IMG/VR virus record: IMGVR_UViG_2541047897_000010
From: a virus
Taxonomy: Duplodnaviria > Heunggongvirae > Uroviricota > Caudoviricetes
Reading direction: 5' to 3' (one strand)
Length of the DNA stretch: 41,642 nucleotides
Shown piece by piece: positions 5,724 to 41,266 of the stretch. The position numbers were made by a program, and so were the translations under genes. How positions within the stretch are numbered: the first letter of the stretch is position 1; every line of letters starts with the position of its first letter. The notes under the pieces were generated by a model, which was given only the letters and a program-made list of their open reading frames with translations, was not told the origin of the DNA and ran no database searches.

Positions 5724-6398
5724 TTAGGCCTTTATTTTGTATCTTCTTGGTTTTCCTGAGAAAATTACTGTACCAATTATAGAGCAATTACCGTTGATCT
5801 TAATGTAAGGTTCAGGCCAGTTTGGGTTTAATGCTTTGAGGTAACGCTGTGTTCCATCTTCTATCAACCGCTTAAAGGTGGTTTCGCCTGTATCGTGCAT
5901 CAATGCAATAACGTCGTCACCGTGGCAGGCAGGGACTTCAGGATCTACAAAAATCATGTCTCCCGGGCGGTACTCATCAATCATTGAATCACCAATCACC
6001 CGCAAGATATAAGTCATTTCGCCACAGGGTACAGGGCAGGGATAAGTTTCTGCTGTGCTCAAATCAACCTCAGAATAGCCAACTTCTTTCCATGCTCCGG
6101 CCTGTACCCATGATATGACAGGGACTAACGTTATTTGTTTGTTAGTAATTGAAACATCAGGTTTTTTTGTGATGTTTGTTGTCTGGTGTTCTTGATCAAG
6201 CCATCCGACAGGCAGGTCGAAACATTTTTCGATGTGCCGTGCCATGCTGTCACCGATATTTTTAGTAGCACCATCTCCCATAAACCTGCTGGTCTGGGTT
6301 GGCTCGCGATCAATCATGGTGGCAAAGGAAGAATTCCCGCCAACACCATCTCTCAGTTTTCTGGCGTTAGACCGCCGGATGTCATGGACTGTTTTCAT
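5724..6398 (-). CDS. cI: CI-type prophage repressor (HTH plus S24 LexA-like autopeptidase domain)
   Basis: 224 aa; C-terminal S24-like region (VIGDSM...GD.I.VD); divergent to cro-like gene. Confidence 0.75.
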   Translation of the reverse strand: MKTVHDIRRSNARKLRDGVGGNSSFATMIDREPTQTSRFMGDGATKNIGDSMARHIEKCFDLPVGWLDQEHQTTNITKKPDVSITNKQITLVPVISWVQAGAWKEVGYSEVDLSTAETYPCPVPCGEMTYILRVIGDSMIDEYRPGDMIFVDPEVPACHGDDVIALMHDTGETTFKRLIEDGTQRYLKALNPNWPEPYIKINGNCSIIGTVIFSGKPRRYKIKA

Positions 6399-7284: not shown

Positions 7285-8117
7285 ACAGTTTAACGGCAAA
7301 TAACCGTTTGTCGCAACAGCTGGTGGTCAGCGTCGCTGAACACCTGTTGTTACGGCATGAATGCAGATTACCAAATCACCTGGCTGTAAGTAACCACAGA
7401 GAACTTTACCTGACTGTGGGGGGCGAGTTGTGCAGGAACTTAACCGCTGGTTTCGTGACGGAAGAGGGCTTTATGTCCATGTTATTCGTTGGGAGCCAGA
7501 AACACAGCGCGTTATCTATCTTCGCAAAGACTACCCGCATGAGTGCTTTAGTCCTTTGTGGAAATTCAGGCGTGATTTTGTTGAGTGTGAAGGACCACCA
7601 GCACATTGATTCTGCCATTCCGGGACGTTACACTGTTCAGGCACCTTATAAAGCGGGTGACGGGATTGGCGTCCTGGAAATGTTATCGGCGATATATGAC
7701 GCGCCAGCGTCTTTTTTATCGTCTGTGTCTGTGCACACCCAAATTATGGTGGGCTGGACGGGGGCACCGAAAGGTGCGCCGGTTTCCGATAACGCCGGTT
7801 ACGCCAACCCCGTTCAGTTCACCACCAGCGAAATTGGCGTTTCCGGTGGTGAAGGTAATTCACTGTTATCGGAGGCTGCCATCATGGCTACTGTCCCAGC
7901 CCTCACTCGTCTGAATGATGAAGACTTACATAAACTCAGTTATGTAACAACTGCACTACGTGCTCTGCGCAAGGTAACTCTTTCGGATCCGCAGGCGCAT
8001 CAGGTTTTGGTAGAAACCCTTCTTAACTTGCAGGCTGAACGTATTCGTCTGGCGGATAAGGCTAATTTTCATATTCACCGTCTCCTGAATATCAGCGGAG
8101 GGCATCGTCATGCTTAA
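7281..8117 (+). CDS. Hypothetical early protein, no family recognised
   Basis: 278-aa ORF with ATGA stop/start overlap with upstream gene. Confidence 0.4.
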   Translation: MNSLTANNRLSQQLVVSVAEHLLLRHECRLPNHLAVSNHRELYLTVGGELCRNLTAGFVTEEGFMSMLFVGSQKHSALSIFAKTTRMSALVLCGNSGVILLSVKDHQHIDSAIPGRYTVQAPYKAGDGIGVLEMLSAIYDAPASFLSSVSVHTQIMVGWTGAPKGAPVSDNAGYANPVQFTTSEIGVSGGEGNSLLSEAAIMATVPALTRLNDEDLHKLSYVTTALRALRKVTLSDPQAHQVLVETLLNLQAERIRLADKANFHIHRLLNISGGHRHA

Positions 8118-9163: not shown

Positions 9164-9652
9164 ATGAGTCTTTTGAATGAAGTTCAGAAATTCATTGAAG
9201 CCCATCCGGGGTGTACTTCCGGAGACATTGCAGATGCTTTTGCAGGTTACTCACGGCAGCGCGTTCTGCAGTCAGCAAGCAAGTTACGTCAGAGTGGGCG
9301 TGTGGCTCACCGTTGTGAAGGAGATACACGCAGACATTTCCCGCGCCTGACTGAGAGAGCGCAGGAGCCGGAACCACAACCAGTTCGTGAAACCAGACCT
9401 GTGCGCAATTTCTATGTCGGCACTAACGATCCCCGGGTAATTTTGTGCCTGACCCGCCAGGCTGAAGAACTGGAGTCCAGGGGCTTATACCGTCGTGCTG
9501 CAACGGTGTGGATGGCGGCATTCCGTGAAAGCCACTCCCAGCCAGAACGAAACAATTTTCTGGCGCGTCGTGAGCGGTGCTTACGGAAAAGCAGCAAGCG
9601 CGCTGTATCGGGTGAAGAGTGGTATCTGTCAGGGAATTACGTGGGGGCTTAA
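9164..9652 (+). CDS. PerC-like transcriptional regulator
   Basis: Motif AEELESRGLYRRAATVWMAAF matching the recalled PerC family signature. Confidence 0.45.
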   Translation: MSLLNEVQKFIEAHPGCTSGDIADAFAGYSRQRVLQSASKLRQSGRVAHRCEGDTRRHFPRLTERAQEPEPQPVRETRPVRNFYVGTNDPRVILCLTRQAEELESRGLYRRAATVWMAAFRESHSQPERNNFLARRERCLRKSSKRAVSGEEWYLSGNYVGA

Positions 9653-10305
9653 TGAGTAATAAATATTGCCAGGCGCTGGTGGAGCTGCGGAACAAACCAG
9701 CCCATGAACTGAAGGAAGTGGGCGATCAGTGGCGCACGCCGGATAACATTTTCTGGGGAATTAACACCCTGTTTGGCCCGTTTGTTCTGGATCTGTTCAC
9801 TGATGGTGATAACGCCAAATGTGCCGCTTATTACACTGCGGAAGACAACGCGCTGGCGCATGACTGGTCTGAACGTCTTGCGGAGCTTAAAGGTGCTGCC
9901 TTTGGTAATCCCCCGTACAGCCGCGCCAGTCAGCATGAAGGGCAATACATCACCGGCATGCGTTACATCATGAAGCATGCCAGTGCCATGCGTGATAAGG
10001 GCGGACGCTATGTTTTCCTGATCAAAGCTGCCACCAGCGAAGTGTGGTGGCCGGAAGATGCAGATCATATTGCTTTTATTCGCGGGCGTATTGGTTTTGA
10101 ACTGCCTGCCTGGTTTATCCCGAAGGACGAGAAGCAGGTGCCGACAGGCGCTTTCTTCGCTGGTGCTATTGCTGTTTTCGACAAGACCTGGAAGGGACCG
10201 GCAATCAGCTACATCGGGCGCGATGAACTTGAGGCATGTGGTGAGGCGTTTCTGGCGCAGGTTCGCCAGCAGGCAGAAAAACTGGTCAGGGAGATGGCGG
10301 CATGA
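9652..10305 (+). CDS. Phage DNA N6-adenine methyltransferase (Dam-type)
   Basis: NPPY catalytic motif (AFGNPPYS); TAATG overlap with upstream gene. Confidence 0.7.
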   Translation: MSNKYCQALVELRNKPAHELKEVGDQWRTPDNIFWGINTLFGPFVLDLFTDGDNAKCAAYYTAEDNALAHDWSERLAELKGAAFGNPPYSRASQHEGQYITGMRYIMKHASAMRDKGGRYVFLIKAATSEVWWPEDADHIAFIRGRIGFELPAWFIPKDEKQVPTGAFFAGAIAVFDKTWKGPAISYIGRDELEACGEAFLAQVRQQAEKLVREMAA

Positions 10306-10628
10306 CGACGTTAACTCAATGCCAGCAGCAGGTGCTGGATATGCTGATTTCTTATCAGAAAGAACGTGGCTTCCCGCCAACCAATCAGGAGGTGGCAACC
10401 ATGCTGGGATACCGTTCGGTGAATGCAGCGGTGGAGCATCTTCGCGCACTGGAGAAAAAAGGCGTCATCACGATAAAGCGTGGCGTGGCCCGGGGCATCA
10501 CGCTTCATACCGCGGTGAAGGACGACGGCAGCGAGGCGGTCGGGATTATCCGCGCACTGCTTGCCGGTGAGGAAAACGCCAGGCTGCGTGCAGCCCACTG
10601 GTTACATGAGAGGGGGCTGAAAGTATGA
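10302..10628 (+). CDS. LexA N-terminal DNA-binding-domain homologue lacking the S24 peptidase domain
   Basis: 108 aa; residues QQQVLDML...GFPPTNQEVA..LGYRSVNAAVEHLRALEKKGVI...RGITL align with the LexA winged-helix N-domain; no cleavage-site/Ser-Lys domain. Confidence 0.55.
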   Translation: MTTLTQCQQQVLDMLISYQKERGFPPTNQEVATMLGYRSVNAAVEHLRALEKKGVITIKRGVARGITLHTAVKDDGSEAVGIIRALLAGEENARLRAAHWLHERGLKV

Positions 10629-11014
10629 AGCTAATACTGCCTTTCCCGCCCAGCGTGAACACGTACTGGCGACACCCCAACAAAGGGGCGTTTGCTGGTA
10701 AGAGCCTGATAAGCGCGGCGGGGCGAAAATTCCAGAGCGCGGCGTGTGCAGCAATAGTTGAGCAGTTACGTCGTCTGCCAAAACCAACGTCGGCACCTGC
10801 TTCAGTGGAGATCGTGTTGTTTCCTCCGGATAACCGGATCCGCGATCTGGACAACTATAACAAGGCGCTGTTTGACGCCCTGACCCACGCGGGGGTGTGG
10901 GAAGACGACAGACAGGTGAAAAGAATGCTGGTGGAGTGGGGACCGGTTATCCCGAAAGGGAAGGTCGAGATCACTATCAGTAAGTACAAGAAAACGGCGG
11001 GTGCAGCCGCCTGA
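10625..11014 (+). CDS. rusA: RusA Holliday-junction resolvase
   Basis: 129 aa; N-terminal LPFPPSVNTYW and acidic catalytic region typical of RusA. Confidence 0.8.
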   Translation: MKLILPFPPSVNTYWRHPNKGAFAGKSLISAAGRKFQSAACAAIVEQLRRLPKPTSAPASVEIVLFPPDNRIRDLDNYNKALFDALTHAGVWEDDRQVKRMLVEWGPVIPKGKVEITISKYKKTAGAAA

Positions 11015-11844: not shown

Positions 11845-12840
11845 GTGACCGTGAGAGCATTACTGACCCCTGAAATTGCCCCGCGTATGGGGATCGTATT
11901 GTTCAGACCCGGTTCAGAGCTGATGCCCCTGTTTATGCAGGGGCGTGTCCTGCTGGAGCCTGAGCCAGAACGTTATTCATCTTTTGCCAGTGGTGCCGTT
12001 CCGGCGGCATCACAACCGCTGGCGGATGATCCTGCTGTTCGGGCCGTGTTCCGCAATGAGGCAGTGATCCGTCGTGCTGGTGGCGTGGAATGTCTTGAAA
12101 GCTGGTTACTTCGTGAAAAAGGCTGCCAGTGGCCTCATTCCGACTGGCACAGCGAGAACATGACAACAATGCGACACGCTCCGGGCGCAATCCGTCTGTG
12201 CTGGCACTGCGATAACCAGCTGCGCGATCAGTTCACGGAACGGCTGGAATCAATGGCAACGGATAACTGTGCCCGCTGGGTGTTGTCTGTTGTGCGTCGG
12301 GATCTCGGTTTTGATGACAGTCACGTTGTGACAATGCCGGAACTGTGCTGGTGGCTGGTTCGTAATGATCTGGCGGATGCCTTACCGGAAAGCGCAGCCC
12401 GTAAGGCACTGAGATTACCGAATCCTGTTGTGCCGTCTGTCACCCGGGAAAGTGACCTTGTGCCTTCGGTTCCTGCCACCAGCATCATCCAGGATAAGGC
12501 GAAAAAGGTGCTGGCGCTGAAAGTGGATCCGGAGTCGCCGGAGTCTTTTATGTTACGCCCAAAACGTCGCCGCTGGGTTAATGAAAAGTACACGCGCTGG
12601 GTTAAGACACAGCCGTGCGCATGTTGTGGAAAGCCTGCTGATGATCCTCACCACCTGATAGGCCACGGTCAGGGGGGAATGGGTACAAAAGCGCATGACC
12701 TCTTTGTGTTGCCTTTGTGCAGAAAGCATCACGACGAGCTGCATGCGGATACCGTGGCATTTGAAGAGAAGTATGGCTCCCAGCTGGAGCTGATATTTCG
12801 TTTTATCGATCGTGCGCTGGCAATAGGCGTACTGGCGTAA
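11845..12840 (+). CDS. DUF968-domain protein (HNH-like Cys/His C-terminus)
   Basis: C-terminal CACCGKPADDPHHLIGHG...CRKHHDELH; start uncertain (GTG 11845 or 11851). Confidence 0.5.
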   Translation: MTVRALLTPEIAPRMGIVLFRPGSELMPLFMQGRVLLEPEPERYSSFASGAVPAASQPLADDPAVRAVFRNEAVIRRAGGVECLESWLLREKGCQWPHSDWHSENMTTMRHAPGAIRLCWHCDNQLRDQFTERLESMATDNCARWVLSVVRRDLGFDDSHVVTMPELCWWLVRNDLADALPESAARKALRLPNPVVPSVTRESDLVPSVPATSIIQDKAKKVLALKVDPESPESFMLRPKRRRWVNEKYTRWVKTQPCACCGKPADDPHHLIGHGQGGMGTKAHDLFVLPLCRKHHDELHADTVAFEEKYGSQLELIFRFIDRALAIGVLA

Positions 12841-12853
12841 GTGGAGAACGAGC

Positions 12854-13606
12854 ATGAACCTTGAAGCCTTACCAAAATATTACTCCCCAAAATCTCCAAA
12901 ACTGAGCGATGACGCACCGGCGACAGGCTCGGGTGGTTTAACGATTACGGATGTGATGGCTGCGCAGGGGATGGTGCAGTCGAAAGCACCGCTTGGGTTT
13001 GCCTTATTTCTGGCAAAAGTTGGTGTTCAGGATCCTCAGTTTGCGATTGAAGGTCTGCTCAATTACGCGATGGCACTGGATAACCCGACATTGAACAAAT
13101 TGAGTGAAGAAACCCGGTTACAGATCATCCCTTACCTTGTGAATTTTGCCTTTGCTGATTATTCCAGGTCTGCGGCAAGTAAGGCTCGCTGTGGGCATTG
13201 TGCTGGTACTGGATTTCATAATGTATTGCGCGAAGTGGTGAAACACTACAGACGCGGGGAATCTGTTATCAAGGAAGAGTGGGTGAAGGAACTATGTCAG
13301 CATTGCCATGGTAAGGGAGAAGTCAGCACAGCGTGCAGAGGGTGTAAGGGTAAAGGTATTGTCCTGGATGAAAAAAGGACCCGGCTTCATGGCACGCCTG
13401 TTTATAAGATTTGTGGGCGTTGCAATGGAAACCGGTTTAGCCGTTTACCAACCACACTGGCGCGGCATCATGTCCAGAAGCTGGTACCAGACCTGACGGA
13501 TTATCAGTGGTACAAAGGATATGCAGATGTCATTGATAAACTGGTGACAAAGTGCTGGCAGGAAGAAGCATATGCTGAGGCGCAATTAAGAAAAGTGACG
13601 AGATAA
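12854..13606 (+). CDS. Late-gene antiterminator Q-like protein
   Basis: Multiple CxxC/HxxC zinc-binding pairs (CGHCAGTG, CQHCHGKG, CRGCKGKG, CGRCNGN); position before lysis genes and PR'-like promoter/terminator. Confidence 0.6.
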   Translation: MNLEALPKYYSPKSPKLSDDAPATGSGGLTITDVMAAQGMVQSKAPLGFALFLAKVGVQDPQFAIEGLLNYAMALDNPTLNKLSEETRLQIIPYLVNFAFADYSRSAASKARCGHCAGTGFHNVLREVVKHYRRGESVIKEEWVKELCQHCHGKGEVSTACRGCKGKGIVLDEKRTRLHGTPVYKICGRCNGNRFSRLPTTLARHHVQKLVPDLTDYQWYKGYADVIDKLVTKCWQEEAYAEAQLRKVTR

Positions 13607-13756: not shown

Positions 13757-14014
13757 ATGCAGGGCGAAAAGCAGCAGCCATATTTTTTTAATCCTGGTAT
13801 GACTGTTGAACAGCTTGAAGACTGGCTGGAGCAGCAAAAGCTTCATCTAAGCCGCTATAGCCGTCTGGTAAAAGAAAAAGCAGAGCTTGAAGAACGGCTC
13901 AGTGATATTTCTGTGGAAATTGAACGAATGTCTGCTGGTGGTTTTAACGGAAAGTTGAGTTTCCCTTGGGAGTCAAGTTCGCTTCTGAGAAATCATCAAC
14001 AGGGTAGTATTTGA
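13757..14014 (+). CDS. Hypothetical coiled-coil protein at start of late operon
   Basis: ATG 13757 with GGAGG SD (6-nt spacing); ORF track version from 13688 would cross the terminator. Confidence 0.4.
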   Translation: MQGEKQQPYFFNPGMTVEQLEDWLEQQKLHLSRYSRLVKEKAELEERLSDISVEIERMSAGGFNGKLSFPWESSSLLRNHQQGSI

Positions 14015-14093: not shown

Positions 14094-14480
14094 ATGTCCG
14101 ATCCGATTTCCGGTACTGGGCTGGCTGGTGGTGCCCTGACGGGTGCCAGTGTTTATGGACTGCTGACCGGAACTGATTACGGCGTTGTATTTGGCGCATT
14201 TGCAGGGGCTGTATTCTACATAGCAACAGCAGCAGATCTGAGTGCATCGCGCCGACTGGCATATTTTATTGTGTCATATATTGCCGGGATTCTTTGCTCT
14301 GGGTTGGTTGGCTCCAAGCTGGCGAACTTGACCGGATACAGTGATAAACCTCTGGATGCTATTGGTGCCGTAATCGTCTCTGCTTTAGCCGTTAAAATCC
14401 TGACGTTCCTGAATAATCAGGATATCGGCTCGCTGGTGGCGCTCATAACGCGCCGGGGAGGTTCAGGTGGAGCTAAATGA
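14094..14480 (+). CDS. Holin-like multi-pass membrane protein
   Basis: 128 aa, strong SD (AAGAGGGGG), Gly/Ala-rich hydrophobic segments, first gene of lysis cassette. Confidence 0.5.
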   Translation: MSDPISGTGLAGGALTGASVYGLLTGTDYGVVFGAFAGAVFYIATAADLSASRRLAYFIVSYIAGILCSGLVGSKLANLTGYSDKPLDAIGAVIVSALAVKILTFLNNQDIGSLVALITRRGGSGGAK

Positions 14481-36505: not shown

Positions 36506-37077
36506 TATTTAGCCCTCACCAGAAAGTTAAATGCAATATTTCGTGGACGGGTTTCTGTACCTACATGTCCACTAATTTCACCATAACGTTTAACACTACG
36601 AGAGCTAAGAGCTCGTAGTGAGGAAGGCACCTTAAGACCGGGTTCGTCCGTTTTAACTATTCCCCCGTCACCATATGTAGCCAGTATTCCTGGGTTTACT
36701 CCTTCCCGTGCACTTCCTGCAGCAAGCCCGTCCCCCGTCCACAATTCCATATTGTGTGCATGATCCATAATTGTGTGTGATTGCCCTGAAAGTAGGGTAC
36801 GTCCGACATCAATCCCGCGCCCATCATCCCAGATACGAATGAAATCACCCCGTGCGTCAGGTAATGCTAGCGCCGGAAACACTTTCGCCAGCACAGGGTA
36901 ATCAGTGGCAGAGAATTTCGCGCCGTTGAACTTCAAAAACACCATACTGGACCAACTGTCGATTACAGTATTTGGCATTGCGGCGGACGGCCAGAAGAAC
37001 GGAACGCCAATAGCTGGAGCACCTTCTCCCAAACCAACGTTTAAGAAAATGCAGAGATTATGGCTAACTGGCATCAT
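36505..37077 (-). CDS. Alternative tail-fibre C-terminal coding segment (promoterless; fused to constant N-terminus after inversion)
   Basis: Reverse ORF whose N-terminal codons (..NVGLGEG..) are encoded by the right crossover site, mirroring ENLGLGT at the left site. Confidence 0.5.
   Translation of the reverse strand: MMPVSHNLCIFLNVGLGEGAPAIGVPFFWPSAAMPNTVIDSWSSMVFLKFNGAKFSATDYPVLAKVFPALALPDARGDFIRIWDDGRGIDVGRTLLSGQSHTIMDHAHNMELWTGDGLAAGSAREGVNPGILATYGDGGIVKTDEPGLKVPSSLRALSSRSVKRYGEISGHVGTETRPRNIAFNFLVRAK
37024..37049. repeat. Right inversion crossover site (gix/hix-like)
   Basis: TTCTCCCAAACCAACGTTTAAGAAAA, reverse complement of left site with identical core CCCAAACCAA-G-TTT. Confidence 0.55.
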
Positions 37078-37104
37078 CCCCGGTTTTTACTCAGGGGAAT
37101 GCTC

Positions 37105-37662
37105 ATGCTTATTGGCTATGTCCGCGTATCAACAAATGACCAGAATACGGAATTGCAGCGTAATGCGCTGGAGTGTGCAGGATGTGAGCTGATTTTTGAA
37201 GATAAGATCAGCGGCACTAAGTCCGACCGACCGGGACTGAAAAAACTGCTCAGAACATTATCAGCAGGTGACACTCTGGTAGTCTGGAAACTGGACCGAC
37301 TGGGGCGCAGTATGCGGCATCTTGTCGTGCTGGTGGAGGAGTTGCGCGAACGTGGCGTTAATTTTCGCAGCCTGACGGATGCTATTGATACCAGCACACC
37401 AATGGGGCGCTTTTTCTTTCATGTGATGGGTGCCCTGGCTGAAATGGAGCGAGAGCTTATTGTCGAACGTACTAGGGCGGGCTTTGCCGCAGCACGACAA
37501 GAAGGGAGGAATGGTGGGCGAAAGCCAAAGCTGACAGTAGAACAATGGGAGCAGGCTGGCAGGTTGATTGAATCGGGAATATATCAGCAGCAAGTCGCAC
37601 TGATTTATGATCTGGGTATTTCAACGGTGTATAAAAAATTCCCTGTAGCAAGTAAACCATAA
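37105..37662 (+). CDS. pin: Serine DNA invertase (Gin/Pin/Hin family)
   Basis: N-terminus MLIGYVRVSTNDQNT...; near-collinear with recalled Gin/Pin sequences; C-terminal HTH. Confidence 0.85.
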   Translation: MLIGYVRVSTNDQNTELQRNALECAGCELIFEDKISGTKSDRPGLKKLLRTLSAGDTLVVWKLDRLGRSMRHLVVLVEELRERGVNFRSLTDAIDTSTPMGRFFFHVMGALAEMERELIVERTRAGFAAARQEGRNGGRKPKLTVEQWEQAGRLIESGIYQQQVALIYDLGISTVYKKFPVASKP

Positions 37663-38732: not shown

Positions 38733-38981
38733 TTAGTGAACAAACCACTCGTCAGCAGATTCCCAGGTATCTTTCAGAGTCTCCTGAACAAAAGTTTTTG
38801 CAGAATCCTTATCTGCGGTGCGTGTAACAGAAAGGCCATCATTGCTGGTGGCTTTTACTAACACCTCAACATCGTCATAACGCTTACTGATGCGTCGGGT
38901 TAATTCTTCCTTTAACGCATCCACAGCACCGGTTGGCATTTTAGTCATTTTTTCTTTGGCTATGCAGATTTCAATACGCAT
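38733..38981 (-). CDS. dinI: DinI-like SOS-regulated protein
   Basis: 82 aa; MRIEI...[12 protein letters not shown] closely parallels DinI; tandem LexA boxes immediately upstream. Confidence 0.75.
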
Positions 38982-38994
38982 AAAAGTCCCTCCA

Positions 38995-39014
38995 TACTGT
39001 GTTTGTATACAGTA
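38995..39014. promoter_or_regulatory. LexA (SOS) box 1
   Basis: TACTGTGTTTGTATACAGTA, perfect CTGT-N8-ACAG. Confidence 0.65.
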
Positions 39015-39022
39015 TTATTTTT

Positions 39023-39042
39023 AACTGTATGGATAAACAGTG
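39023..39042. promoter_or_regulatory. LexA (SOS) box 2
   Basis: AACTGTATGGATAAACAGTG, CTGT-N8-ACAG; 9 bp from box 1. Confidence 0.6.
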
Positions 39043-40140
39043 TCAAGAGGTCTTATTTCTGCTCCTTTGGAGCTCTTCAAAACGATTATGTAAAGATTTC
39101 GGATACAGTTCGGTATATACCTGCCATAGCACGTTTAATGAACGATGCCCTGTAACCTGGGCGACTTCCTCAATACTAAAACCAGCCTCAAATAAGCGAC
39201 TTGCCCCTTCTCTACGCAAATCATGGTATCGCAGATCCTTAATACCTAATTTGCTTCTTACTCTCTGAAATCCCGCAGTAACAGAAGTGCTGTTATATGG
39301 AAAAATGAATTCCGATTTTTGGGGCTGTCGTTGGACGATATCCCAGGCTTCCCCAAGCAAGGCTACTTTCATGTGGTTGCCTTCCTTTTTGCGTGGATCT
39401 TTCCTGTCTCTTACGAGTATAGATTTTTGTTCCTGGTCGAGATCTTCCCATCGTAACCGGCATACTTCTCCGATTCGCATACAGGACCATACAGAAAATT
39501 TGAGGATATCAACGAACGGAATTTTTGAGCATTTATGAGTAGATCGTTGTTGAAGGCCTGCAATGAGCATGTCCAGTTCATCAGATGCTGGTCTACGATT
39601 ACGACGGTTTGATTTACCAATCAAACCAAGTTTAAGTAGATATGGGCGAGCGCTTTTCGCCGGGTTTGATGTGTAATTAATTCCGTATACAGGTTTGGCC
39701 GCATCCAGAACACTGCCAAGATAACTAACATCGTGGCTGACTGTTGCAGGACCTGCACCAGCGTTGTTTCTTAGCCTGCAATGTTCAATTACGTCATTTT
39801 CTGTCAGTTCAGATAGTTTGATCGCGGAGATGTCACTATCCATAAGCAGTTCCAGCACATATCTTTTAGTACGGCCTGCTTTACCTCCGGCATTTGGGTC
39901 ATTTAAATATTTGTGTAGTAAGTCACGGACTGTAAGTCCGTCAACTGCATTTGATGATGGAATGCCATATAGATCTAATTCCATCACTTTCTGTGTGCCC
40001 CATGTTTTGGCATGAGCATGTTTAGGGAATGTTTTGCTTTCCCTGTAAGTGATAACACCTTTTTCTTTGATAATCACATTACAGCGATAGCGTGGTGTGC
40101 CATCGGATTTTAGTCGTTTCTCTATGTTATAGTACGCCAT
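39043..40140 (-). CDS. int: Tyrosine integrase, dusA-associated type
   Basis: 365 aa with catalytic R...HDLRR...GHRSL...Y residues; divergent from and adjacent to dusA. Confidence 0.85.
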   Translation of the reverse strand: MAYYNIEKRLKSDGTPRYRCNVIIKEKGVITYRESKTFPKHAHAKTWGTQKVMELDLYGIPSSNAVDGLTVRDLLHKYLNDPNAGGKAGRTKRYVLELLMDSDISAIKLSELTENDVIEHCRLRNNAGAGPATVSHDVSYLGSVLDAAKPVYGINYTSNPAKSARPYLLKLGLIGKSNRRNRRPASDELDMLIAGLQQRSTHKCSKIPFVDILKFSVWSCMRIGEVCRLRWEDLDQEQKSILVRDRKDPRKKEGNHMKVALLGEAWDIVQRQPQKSEFIFPYNSTSVTAGFQRVRSKLGIKDLRYHDLRREGASRLFEAGFSIEEVAQVTGHRSLNVLWQVYTELYPKSLHNRFEELQRSRNKTS

Positions 40141-40160
40141 TACACGACCTCGTTATTTCG

Positions 40161-40195
40161 GGTTCCCATAAAACGTGGGAACCTGTGCGGGAACC
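40161..40195. promoter_or_regulatory. Inverted plus direct repeats in int-dusA intergenic region (candidate integrase/regulator binding sites)
   Basis: GGTTCCCA-7nt-TGGGAACC then GGGAACC. Confidence 0.3.
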
Positions 40196-40228
40196 TAACG
40201 CGAGAAAAATAGCCTGAAATGTTCAAAA

Positions 40229-41266
40229 ATGCACGATAATCATGAAACAAAAAAAATTAATCAAACCAGCGTGATGCCTGAAAAAACTGGTGTTTACTGG
40301 AATTCTCGGTTTAGCATTGCTCCTATGCTCGACTGGACGGACAGACATTGCCGTTATTTCCTGCGTCTGCTTTCCCGCAATACGTTGCTGTATACCGAAA
40401 TGGTGACCACAGGGGCGATTATTCACGGTAAAGGTGATTACCTGGCGTACAGTGAAGAAGAACATCCGGTAGCGTTGCAACTCGGGGGTAGCGATCCGGC
40501 GGCGCTGGCACAGTGTGCGAAGCTGGCAGAAGCGCGTGGATACGATGAGATCAACCTGAATGTCGGCTGCCCGTCTGACCGGGTGCAGAACGGCATGTTT
40601 GGTGCGTGTCTGATGGGTAATGCGCAGCTGGTTGCCGACTGCGTGAAAGCGATGCGCGATGTGGTGTCGATTCCGGTGACGGTGAAGACGCGTATTGGCA
40701 TCGATGATCAGGACAGCTATGAATTTCTCTGCGATTTCATCAACACCGTTTCCGGCAAAGGTGAGTGTGAGATGTTCATCATCCACGCACGTAAAGCCTG
40801 GCTTTCTGGGTTAAGTCCGAAAGAAAACCGTGAGATCCCGCCGCTCGATTATCCGCGTGTGTATCAACTGAAGCGTGACTTTCCGCATCTGACGATGTCG
40901 ATTAACGGTGGTATCAAGTCGCTGGAAGAAGCTAAAGCGCATTTGCAACATATGGATGGCGTGATGGTCGGGCGCGAGGCGTATCAGAATCCGGGTATTC
41001 TGGCGGCGGTAGACCGAGAGATTTTTGGTTCCTCGGATATTGATGCCGATCCGGTGGCGGTAGTGCGCGCCATGTATCCGTACATTGAGCGTGAACTCAG
41101 CCAGGGTACGTATCTCGGCCATATTACCCGGCATATGCTGGGCTTGTTCCAGGGTATTCCTGGCGCGCGGCAGTGGCGGCGTTATTTAAGTGAAAATGCC
41201 CATAAAGCGGGTGCAGACATTAATGTGCTGGAACACGCGCTCAAACTGGTGGCGGATAAGCGTTAA
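40229..41266 (+). CDS. dusA: tRNA-dihydrouridine synthase A
   Basis: 345-aa ORF with Dus TIM-barrel motifs ([21 protein letters not shown]); alternative start at 40274 (MPEKT) possible; 5' end may be phage-supplied. Confidence 0.85.

Follow-up and report, generated by a model that had tools for sequence, protein, structure and literature searches.

A phage-encoded LexA DNA-binding domain that lacks the autopeptidase domain in an SfV/mEp460-like lambdoid prophage

The stretch of DNA analyzed here (the window; 41,642 nucleotides, IMG/VR record IMGVR_UViG_2541047897_000010) is an SfV/mEp460-like lambdoid prophage integrated beside dusA. The nin part of its early right region contains, on the + strand at positions 10302..10628, a gene with an ATG start to which we give the working name lexN. 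The 108-residue lexN protein is a phage-encoded LexA N-terminal domain followed by a hinge and a new two-helix tail, without the autopeptidase domain. The gene is tightly embedded between a gene for a Dam methyltransferase and one for the resolvase RusA: the lexN start codon overlaps the dam stop codon (ATGA) and the lexN stop codon, TGA, overlaps the ATG of rusA, by 4 bp on each side.

The assignment of lexN is based on Pfam, on phmmer searches of PDB sequences, and on phrog_362. The Pfam profile LexA_DNA_bind (PF01726) matches lexN residues 1-65 over its entire length (profile positions 1-65 of 65, E=2.9e-19, 69 bits against a cutoff of 23.7), and the N-terminal domain of Escherichia coli LexA (1lea) matches residues 2-83 (E=2.5e-16). 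The original prediction, which was made from the sequence alone, had the product aligning with the LexA N-terminal domain along its length; this holds for the residues covered by these matches and fails for residues ~85-108, which have no LexA counterpart. Both recognition-helix peptides that it quoted, RSVNAAVEHLRALEKKGVI in lexN and RSPNAAEEHLKALARKGVI in LexA, are correct. As it also proposed, a cleavage domain is missing: Pfam gave no Peptidase_S24 (PF00717) match in the lexN product, and the chain ends at residue 108, where rusA begins immediately. Consistent with this, TIGR00498, the NCBIfam equivalog model for lexA, scores 69.6 bits on lexN, below its cutoff of 110.95, and is covered only at model positions 1-91 of 203.

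We modeled the lexN protein with AlphaFold2 from an alignment of 43 family sequences, which gave a mean predicted local distance difference test score (pLDDT) of 83; a model from the single sequence was poor (pLDDT 61) and was set aside. Codons 1-68 (10302..10505, + strand) form a LexA-type winged helix-turn-helix (pLDDT ~89), with helices at residues 6-22, 28-35, and 40-52 and a beta wing at residues 56-58 and 66-68. When this part was compared by Foldseek with LexA in its DNA complex (3jso_B), the root-mean-square deviation (RMSD) was 1.0 Å over 68 columns at 50% identity. A linker at residues 71-74, modeled with low confidence, leads into a family-specific helical hairpin at codons 76-103 (10527..10610, + strand; helices 76-88 and 93-103, pLDDT 87-89), which is made up of residues 76-84 together with the non-LexA residues that follow them.

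The tail is conserved among the 43 aligned members: none departs from Ala97 or Leu101, almost all have Ala79 and Ala93, and a hydrophobic residue always occupies positions 82, 83, 86, 87, and 100. We infer that the hairpin is a dimerization element that replaces the C-terminal domain of LexA. The hairpin turn, codons 88-91 (window positions 10563-10574), has the sequence Ala-Gly-Glu-Glu, which is aligned with Val-Ala-Ala/Gly-Glu-Pro in the cleavage-site region of LexA; across the family, Ala88 is found in 25 of 43 members, Gly89 in 24, and Glu90 in 32. The AGE motif in this turn is probably a vestige of the LexA hinge. Several members of the family have a C-terminal -AA or -xA, which resembles ClpX tags.

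The gene is under strong purifying selection and is best explained as a functional early-lytic gene that arose from the part of an enterobacterial lexA encoding its N-terminal half. Among 85 E. coli-type copies, 55 nucleotide alleles encode only 14 protein alleles, the mean synonymous (pS) and nonsynonymous (pN) polymorphisms are 0.099 and 0.006 (pN/pS 0.06), and the helix-turn-helix carries no substitution in any of the 14 protein alleles. Copies of the 327-bp gene at 95-99% identity are present in 50 phage records, including SfV (orf42), SfII, SfIV, mEp460, and phages encoding the Shiga toxins Stx2c, Stx2a, and Stx2k, and in 2233 of 5426 complete E. coli genomes (~41%). More distant relatives, sharing 40-87% identity, come from Citrobacter, Salmonella, Cronobacter, Klebsiella, Enterobacter, Kosakonia, Atlantibacter, and Hafnia. 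The full-length family, tail included, spans 40% to 99% identity and at least nine enterobacterial genera.

The protein is already widely annotated and belongs to the known phage LexA-domain-only proteins, and these annotations rest on homology. The RefSeq name is "LexA family transcriptional regulator"; the mEp460 copy is called "LexA DNA binding domain protein", and annotators elsewhere say LexA, Rrf2, or hypothetical. The phrog_362 profile, named "transcriptional repressor", matches residues 1-108 at positions 1-106 of 106 (E=1.4e-58), so that the tail is part of the recognized family. A survey of Stx phages places a PF01726-only "pham 237", whose function was untried there, among the lysis-lysogeny genes (PMC8136144), and pham 237 is very probably lexN. 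LexA-domain-only proteins are also frequent in unrelated phages. In addition, the proteins P0131, P0147, and P0156 contain two tandem LexA DNA-binding domains per chain and no S24 domain, as if a LexA winged-helix dimer had naturally been joined into a single chain.

Alignment to LexA and comparison within the family place Ser39 and the recognition helix, SVNAAVEHLRALEK, at codons 39-52 (10416..10457, + strand). E. coli LexA contacts DNA through Ser39, Asn41, Ala42, Glu44, and Glu45 (PMC3091678). At these positions lexN has Ser, Asn, Ala, Val, and Glu, and therefore keeps four of the five contact residues. It also retains His46, Lys53, Arg64, and Gly65 of LexA, which are conserved in the family; among the 43 members, Ser39, Asn41, Lys53, Arg64, and Gly65 never vary, and 37 have Ala42. 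For comparison, we used 75 genuine LexAs bearing the S24 domain, from different gamma- and betaproteobacterial species. This control set was drawn from a family-alignment scan of species-representative genomes in which genuine host lexA genes predominated, and it served only for the conservation of helix 3; position 45 in it is biased by the search pattern and unusable. Position 40 varies in these LexAs (Pro, Ala, Val, or Thr), with SVNAAEEH in 6 of the 75, and the change from Pro40 to Val in lexN is unremarkable because it falls within natural LexA variation. The change from Glu44 to Val, in turn, probably alters or relaxes the specificity of lexN relative to LexA, and its operators may be a subset or variant of the canonical SOS boxes.

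The genes around lexN are arranged in the order cI (- strand), cro, cII-like, Ash-family, replication gene, PerC-like, Dam, lexN, RusA, KilA-N, DUF968/HNH, and Q. The cI-type repressor (5724..6398, - strand) has an S24 autopeptidase domain (PF00717, E=1.5e-26). A PerC-like gene (9164-9652) lies upstream of the gene for the Dam N6-adenine methyltransferase (9619..10305, + strand; PF05869, E=1e-45), which precedes lexN in the same operon. Directly downstream and overlapping is the gene for the Holliday-junction resolvase RusA (10625..11014, + strand; PF05866). A DUF968/HNH protein (11845..12840, + strand) is part of a conserved lexN-(rusA)-DUF968-Q block, and the early right operon ends with a Q-type antiterminator (12854..13606, + strand; PF03589). 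A promoter scan found no + strand candidate within 1.3 kb upstream of lexN, and the terminator-like matches there are weak. Because the scan found no nearby promoter and only weak terminator-like matches, the gene layout is most simply read as making lexN a delayed-early gene of the rightward cro-to-Q operon. PADLOC gave no meaningful defense-system match, and membership of lexN in a defense system was dropped.

Several other features of the prophage were recorded. A tyrosine integrase gene (- strand) divergently adjoins dusA, which encodes tRNA-dihydrouridine synthase A (window positions 39043-41266), which puts the boundary of the prophage at the 5' end of dusA. On the prophage map this integrase gene is located at the tail-fiber end and not beside the early left genes. 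Next to the tail-fiber genes is a gene for a Hin/Gin-type invertase (37060-37662), followed, on the opposite strand in the region extending to 38384, by a 231-residue accessory gene whose product has a Cys-rich N-terminus and DUF4145 and had no PADLOC hit. A perfect 24-bp palindrome, ATAACCCGTACATATACGGGTTAT, at 1041-1064 between convergent early left genes is probably a bidirectional terminator.

Candidate operators were scored with a position weight matrix (PWM) built from 20 E. coli SOS boxes, on which the training boxes score 13-27. The tandem CTGT-N8-ACAG boxes that had been reported before the dinI-like gene are real and strong. Box 1, TACTGTGTTTGTATACAGTA (38995..39014, PWM 23.6), overlaps the start of transcription of this gene, and box 2, AACTGTATGGATAAACAGTG (39023..39042, PWM 21.3), fills the 17-nt spacer between TTGACA and TAAAAT; both are candidate lexN targets. 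On the minus strand the promoter reads cTTGACA-ctgtttatccatacagt-TAAAAT-aa-TACTGTATACAAACACAGTA-tGGAGGgacttttATG, and the DinI-like gene that the two boxes control is at 38733..38981 (- strand; PF06183, E=1e-19). This near-consensus promoter lies directly below the integrase stop codon. The suggested prophage-wide scan for CTGT-N8-ACAG returned these two boxes and a third exact match at 7384, which is inside a coding region and scores poorly. The two dinI boxes are the only strong LexA sites in the window, the next best PWM score being below 10. They are textbook targets of host LexA and, for lexN, candidate sites only. The dinI-int module is also found in the lexN-carrying phages mEp460, SKA5, phiSTEC1575-Stx2k, and 1720a-02.

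Searches for alternative operators in the window, covering one-base variants of CTGT and all 4-nt dyads with an 8-nt spacer, gave nothing convincing. TGT-N8-ACA was found 12 times against 10.9 expected, and 5- to 6-nt dyads in the intergenic DNA of the window correspond only to terminators and the dinI boxes. CAGT-N8-ACTG, at 14147, 24315, 25752, 33078, and 36050, was rejected as an operator: its five occurrences against 0.7 expected are not significant after correction for 256 half-sites and are dispersed among late genes. In SfV (L001:23907) and about 10 E. coli-type loci, a LexA box, TACTGTAAAAATAAACAGTG, occurs just after Q, ~3.9 kb downstream of lexN, where the accessory gene that separates Q from the lysis genes begins; its counterpart in the window, at 14013, is degenerate (PWM 9.4).

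The gene neighborhood was compared across 259 lexN loci, including 85 of the E. coli type and 80 of the Klebsiella type. DUF968 is downstream of lexN in nearly all of them, and the gene upstream varies among Dam, a C5 methyltransferase, a replication gene, and PerC, with Dam present in 57 of the 85 E. coli-type loci. The Klebsiella-type protein has 130 residues and the helix-3 sequence SSNAVLLH. In this lineage a small open reading frame, X (phrog_1813), precedes lexN in 78 of 80 loci; further upstream is a DinI-like gene behind a consensus LexA box, and a strong LexA box is found within 1 kb upstream of lexN in 72 of 80. Some of these loci also have a UmuD-like gene (phrog_3469) behind a second LexA box. 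A Klebsiella-type viral contig (L174:1880-3600; also L175-L253) contains a compact nin-region cassette in the order LexA box, UmuD-like open reading frame without the SGDSM catalytic motif, terminator, LexA box, DinI-like gene, X, lexN, a 67-residue open reading frame (phrog_1212), and DUF968. A Salmonella locus (L010:5476-6357; helix 3 SQNTVFIH) and an Enterobacter locus (L254:4500-5408; helix 3 SPNAAAEH) share the arrangement of a terminator, a promoter with a canonical LexA box, an untranslated leader of ~150 nt, X, and lexN. No terminator was found between the LexA-box promoter and lexN in either of these loci or in the Klebsiella lineage. From this arrangement, lexN looks SOS-inducible in the Klebsiella, Salmonella L010, and Enterobacter L254 lineages. 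A LexA box ahead of lexN fits both negative feedback by an uncleavable LexA and a second-tier regulator of the kind represented by the phage GIL01 protein gp6, considered below.

Further palindromes were seen in these loci. CTTTTCA-N8-TGAAAAG, a 22-bp palindrome upstream of Klebsiella lexN, was discarded as within chance expectation and is probably a coding by-product. Two E. coli-type loci (L045:4765 and L080:4765) contain a LexA box, TACTGTATTTATGAACAGTG, between rusA and a divergent KilA-N/antirepressor-like gene, and this box looks like the mark of a LexA-controlled antirepressor-type accessory gene downstream of lexN-rusA. About a dozen E. coli-type relatives (L012:1095, L031:444, L034:330, and others) have a cI-type repressor of another immunity type, and its coding sequence contains a near-perfect LexA box, TACTGTTTTTATATACAGTA.

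We tentatively favor the interpretation that lexN is a tail-dimerized repressor that occupies LexA-type palindromes during lytic growth and thereby damps or reshapes the SOS response. Following infection or cleavage of cI, the rightward transcript would yield the lexN protein, which would be made dimeric by its two-helix tail and could use helix 3 and the wing to bind LexA-type palindromes of 16 bp. Activated RecA (RecA*) engages the C-terminal domain of LexA, and the N-terminal domain is minor in that complex (PMC11787620). Because RecA* acts through this C-terminal domain, which is absent from lexN, the lexN protein should be insensitive to RecA*; with no cleavage site in context and no catalytic domain, it could not be removed in the way that LexA is. 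Most likely, repression would then be reimposed on some or all LexA-box promoters, such as the phage dinI-like promoter and those of host SOS genes, while host LexA is depleted. Since the change from Glu44 to Val probably shifts specificity, the set of operators may be a subset or variant of the canonical boxes. In favor of this interpretation are the LexA fold, the retention of four of the five contact residues, the purifying selection, the conserved tail, the absence of strong LexA-like palindromes in the prophage other than the two dinI boxes, and the placement of the gene behind LexA boxes in the sister lineages. Rewiring of SOS control by lexN, which the original prediction raised as a possibility, is a plausible hypothesis.

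A wider form of this interpretation, which we consider rather unlikely, is that an uncleavable LexA serves as an SOS terminator in enterobacterial lambdoid prophages, acting early in lytic growth in the E. coli type and as damage-induced negative feedback in the sister types. LexA-box promoters would be closed while RecA* is still active, which could silence host SOS genes and whatever genes competing mobile elements keep under LexA control. The amplitude and duration of the SOS response would be set by the LexA-box cassette in the Klebsiella, Salmonella, and Enterobacter types.

Several observations weigh against the occupation of SOS boxes by lexN. Glu is found at position 44 in none of the 43 phage family members, which carry Ala, Val, Leu, Phe, Thr, Asn, or Ser there, compared to 73 of the 75 genuine LexAs. 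Position 45 is Glu in 23 of the 43 members, Asp in 9, Leu in 6, and another residue in 5, which leaves an acidic residue in just 32. The host SOS box is, as far as is known, identical throughout the Enterobacteriaceae. Across the 259 loci there are 11 variants of the helix-3 octamer, in which positions 44 and 45 differ by lineage, and such diversity is unexpected if all members read one invariant host SOS box. In the lineages with a LexA box ahead of lexN, positions 44 and 45 are mostly hydrophobic (Leu-Leu or Phe-Ile), with Glu45 kept in Enterobacter. In the 1 kb upstream of lexN, no LexA box is present in any of the 85 E. coli-type loci, and SfV-type relatives are without the dinI module. 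No functional study of the phrog_362/lexN family was found in the literature, and gp6 of GIL01, the only characterized phage LexA-domain-only protein, does not bind LexA boxes (PMC6182141). This truncated LexA homologue of a Bacillus thuringiensis tectivirus is expressed from the LexA-controlled promoter P1 and activates the late promoter P3; it requires Lys38 and binds not the host LexA box but its own palindrome, GaCACAnnTGTGaC, which overlaps the -35 element of the late promoter (PMC6182141). An alternative possibility is that the phages captured the LexA scaffold and that helix 3 diverged toward a lineage-specific, non-SOS site, so that lexN would be a secondary repressor or activator. In the sister lineages it would be an SOS-triggered second tier behind a LexA box, as gp6 is behind P1. 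The loss of Glu44 in the whole phage family is in line with this, as is the pattern expected of diversified specificities, namely hypervariability of positions 44 and 45 between lineages that are each internally fixed, on a conserved scaffold; gp6 is a direct precedent. However, scans of the window and of the Klebsiella upstream regions yielded no alternative operator candidate, late control in lambdoid phages already operates via Q, and the E. coli-type protein keeps most of the LexA contact residues. We regard such retargeting as the main rival, somewhat less probable than the tentatively favored interpretation.

The position of lexN next to rusA could point to another role, that of an accessory of RusA and DUF968/HNH, either as their DNA-binding partner or as a translationally coupled leader of rusA, and not of a transcription factor. 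Outside the Klebsiella type, rusA is directly 3' of lexN in 178 of 179 loci, usually overlapping it, through 10 helix-3 variants and in spite of the changing upstream gene. Yet rusA follows lexN in 0 of the 80 Klebsiella-type loci, and close RusA-DUF968 blocks without lexN are present in ST64B and in Klebsiella phage ST147-VIM1phi7.2, so that an obligatory partnership with RusA was rejected. Because lexN-free blocks exist and because rusA and DUF968 are more conserved (70-75% identity, compared to 45-50% for lexN), we read the linkage as shared descent of a nin-region block. RusA also resolves junctions alone in vitro, according to the account of Chan et al. (1997) given in PMC12711010. An accessory role is accordingly improbable in our estimation. 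That lexN could be a decaying lexA remnant or a generic winged-helix protein with no sequence-specific role might be suggested by its short length, the lack of a known phenotype, and the inconsistent annotation. This explanation is very hard to reconcile with the low pN/pS, with the conservation of the full-length family, tail included, across its genera, and with the invariance of Ser39, Asn41, Lys53, Arg64, and Gly65, and we give it almost no credence.

The carriers of lexN include Stx2c, Stx2a, and Stx2k phages and Shigella serotype-converting phages. If lexN occupies SOS boxes in a form that cannot be cleaved, lysogens would differ from non-lysogens in the length and strength of the SOS response, with a bearing on mutagenesis, antibiotic tolerance, cross-induction of co-resident prophages, and Shiga-toxin output. 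If lexN acts more generally as an SOS terminator, mutagenesis, prophage induction thresholds, and toxin release would be tuned in a large share of clinical isolates. If lexN is instead retargeted, it would provide a second, Gram-negative case of the gp6 principle, in which the LexA scaffold is reused as a phage regulator.

Compared with E. coli LexA (1lea, 3jso), lexN keeps the winged-helix fold, Ser39, Asn41, Ala42, and Glu45, the wing residues Arg64 and Gly65, and part of the hinge. It differs in lacking the S24 domain with the Ser119/Lys156 dyad, in having Val in place of Glu44, and in the added helical hairpin; it is also phage-borne, lies inside an early right operon, and, in the E. coli-type lineage, has no LexA box of its own. 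The natural cleavage fragment of LexA, residues 1-84, is still a weak repressor and is cleared by ClpXP. A synthetic parallel is available in two-hybrid fusions, in which repression of sulA by the LexA DNA-binding domain requires that a dimerizing partner be attached (Dmitrova et al. 1998, as described in PMC7595419). These fusions join the N-terminal domain to a foreign dimerizing module and act as non-cleavable repressors of the sulA operator, which is the architecture proposed for lexN; unlike lexN, whose dimerization and choice of operator are predictions, they are artificial and contain the wild-type helix 3.

Among natural proteins, GIL01 gp6, as described in the literature, is likewise a LexA DNA-binding domain alone encoded by a temperate phage. 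In contrast to lexN, gp6 is essentially a winged helix alone, with a 14-residue C-terminal extension that forms the wing and no helical tail, and it belongs to a Gram-positive tectivirus. Position 38, the site of the required Lys in gp6, is Arg in lexN and is variable in the lexN family. The DinI- and UmuD-like SOS modulators of prophages resemble lexN in being small SOS proteins borrowed from the host and carried as accessory genes, and they adjoin lexN in the Klebsiella lineage, but they act on RecA or on polymerase management rather than on DNA operators and have no homology to lexN. Finally, the proteins known as phrog_362, pham 237, SfV orf42, and the mEp460 LexA DNA-binding domain protein show no structural difference from lexN.

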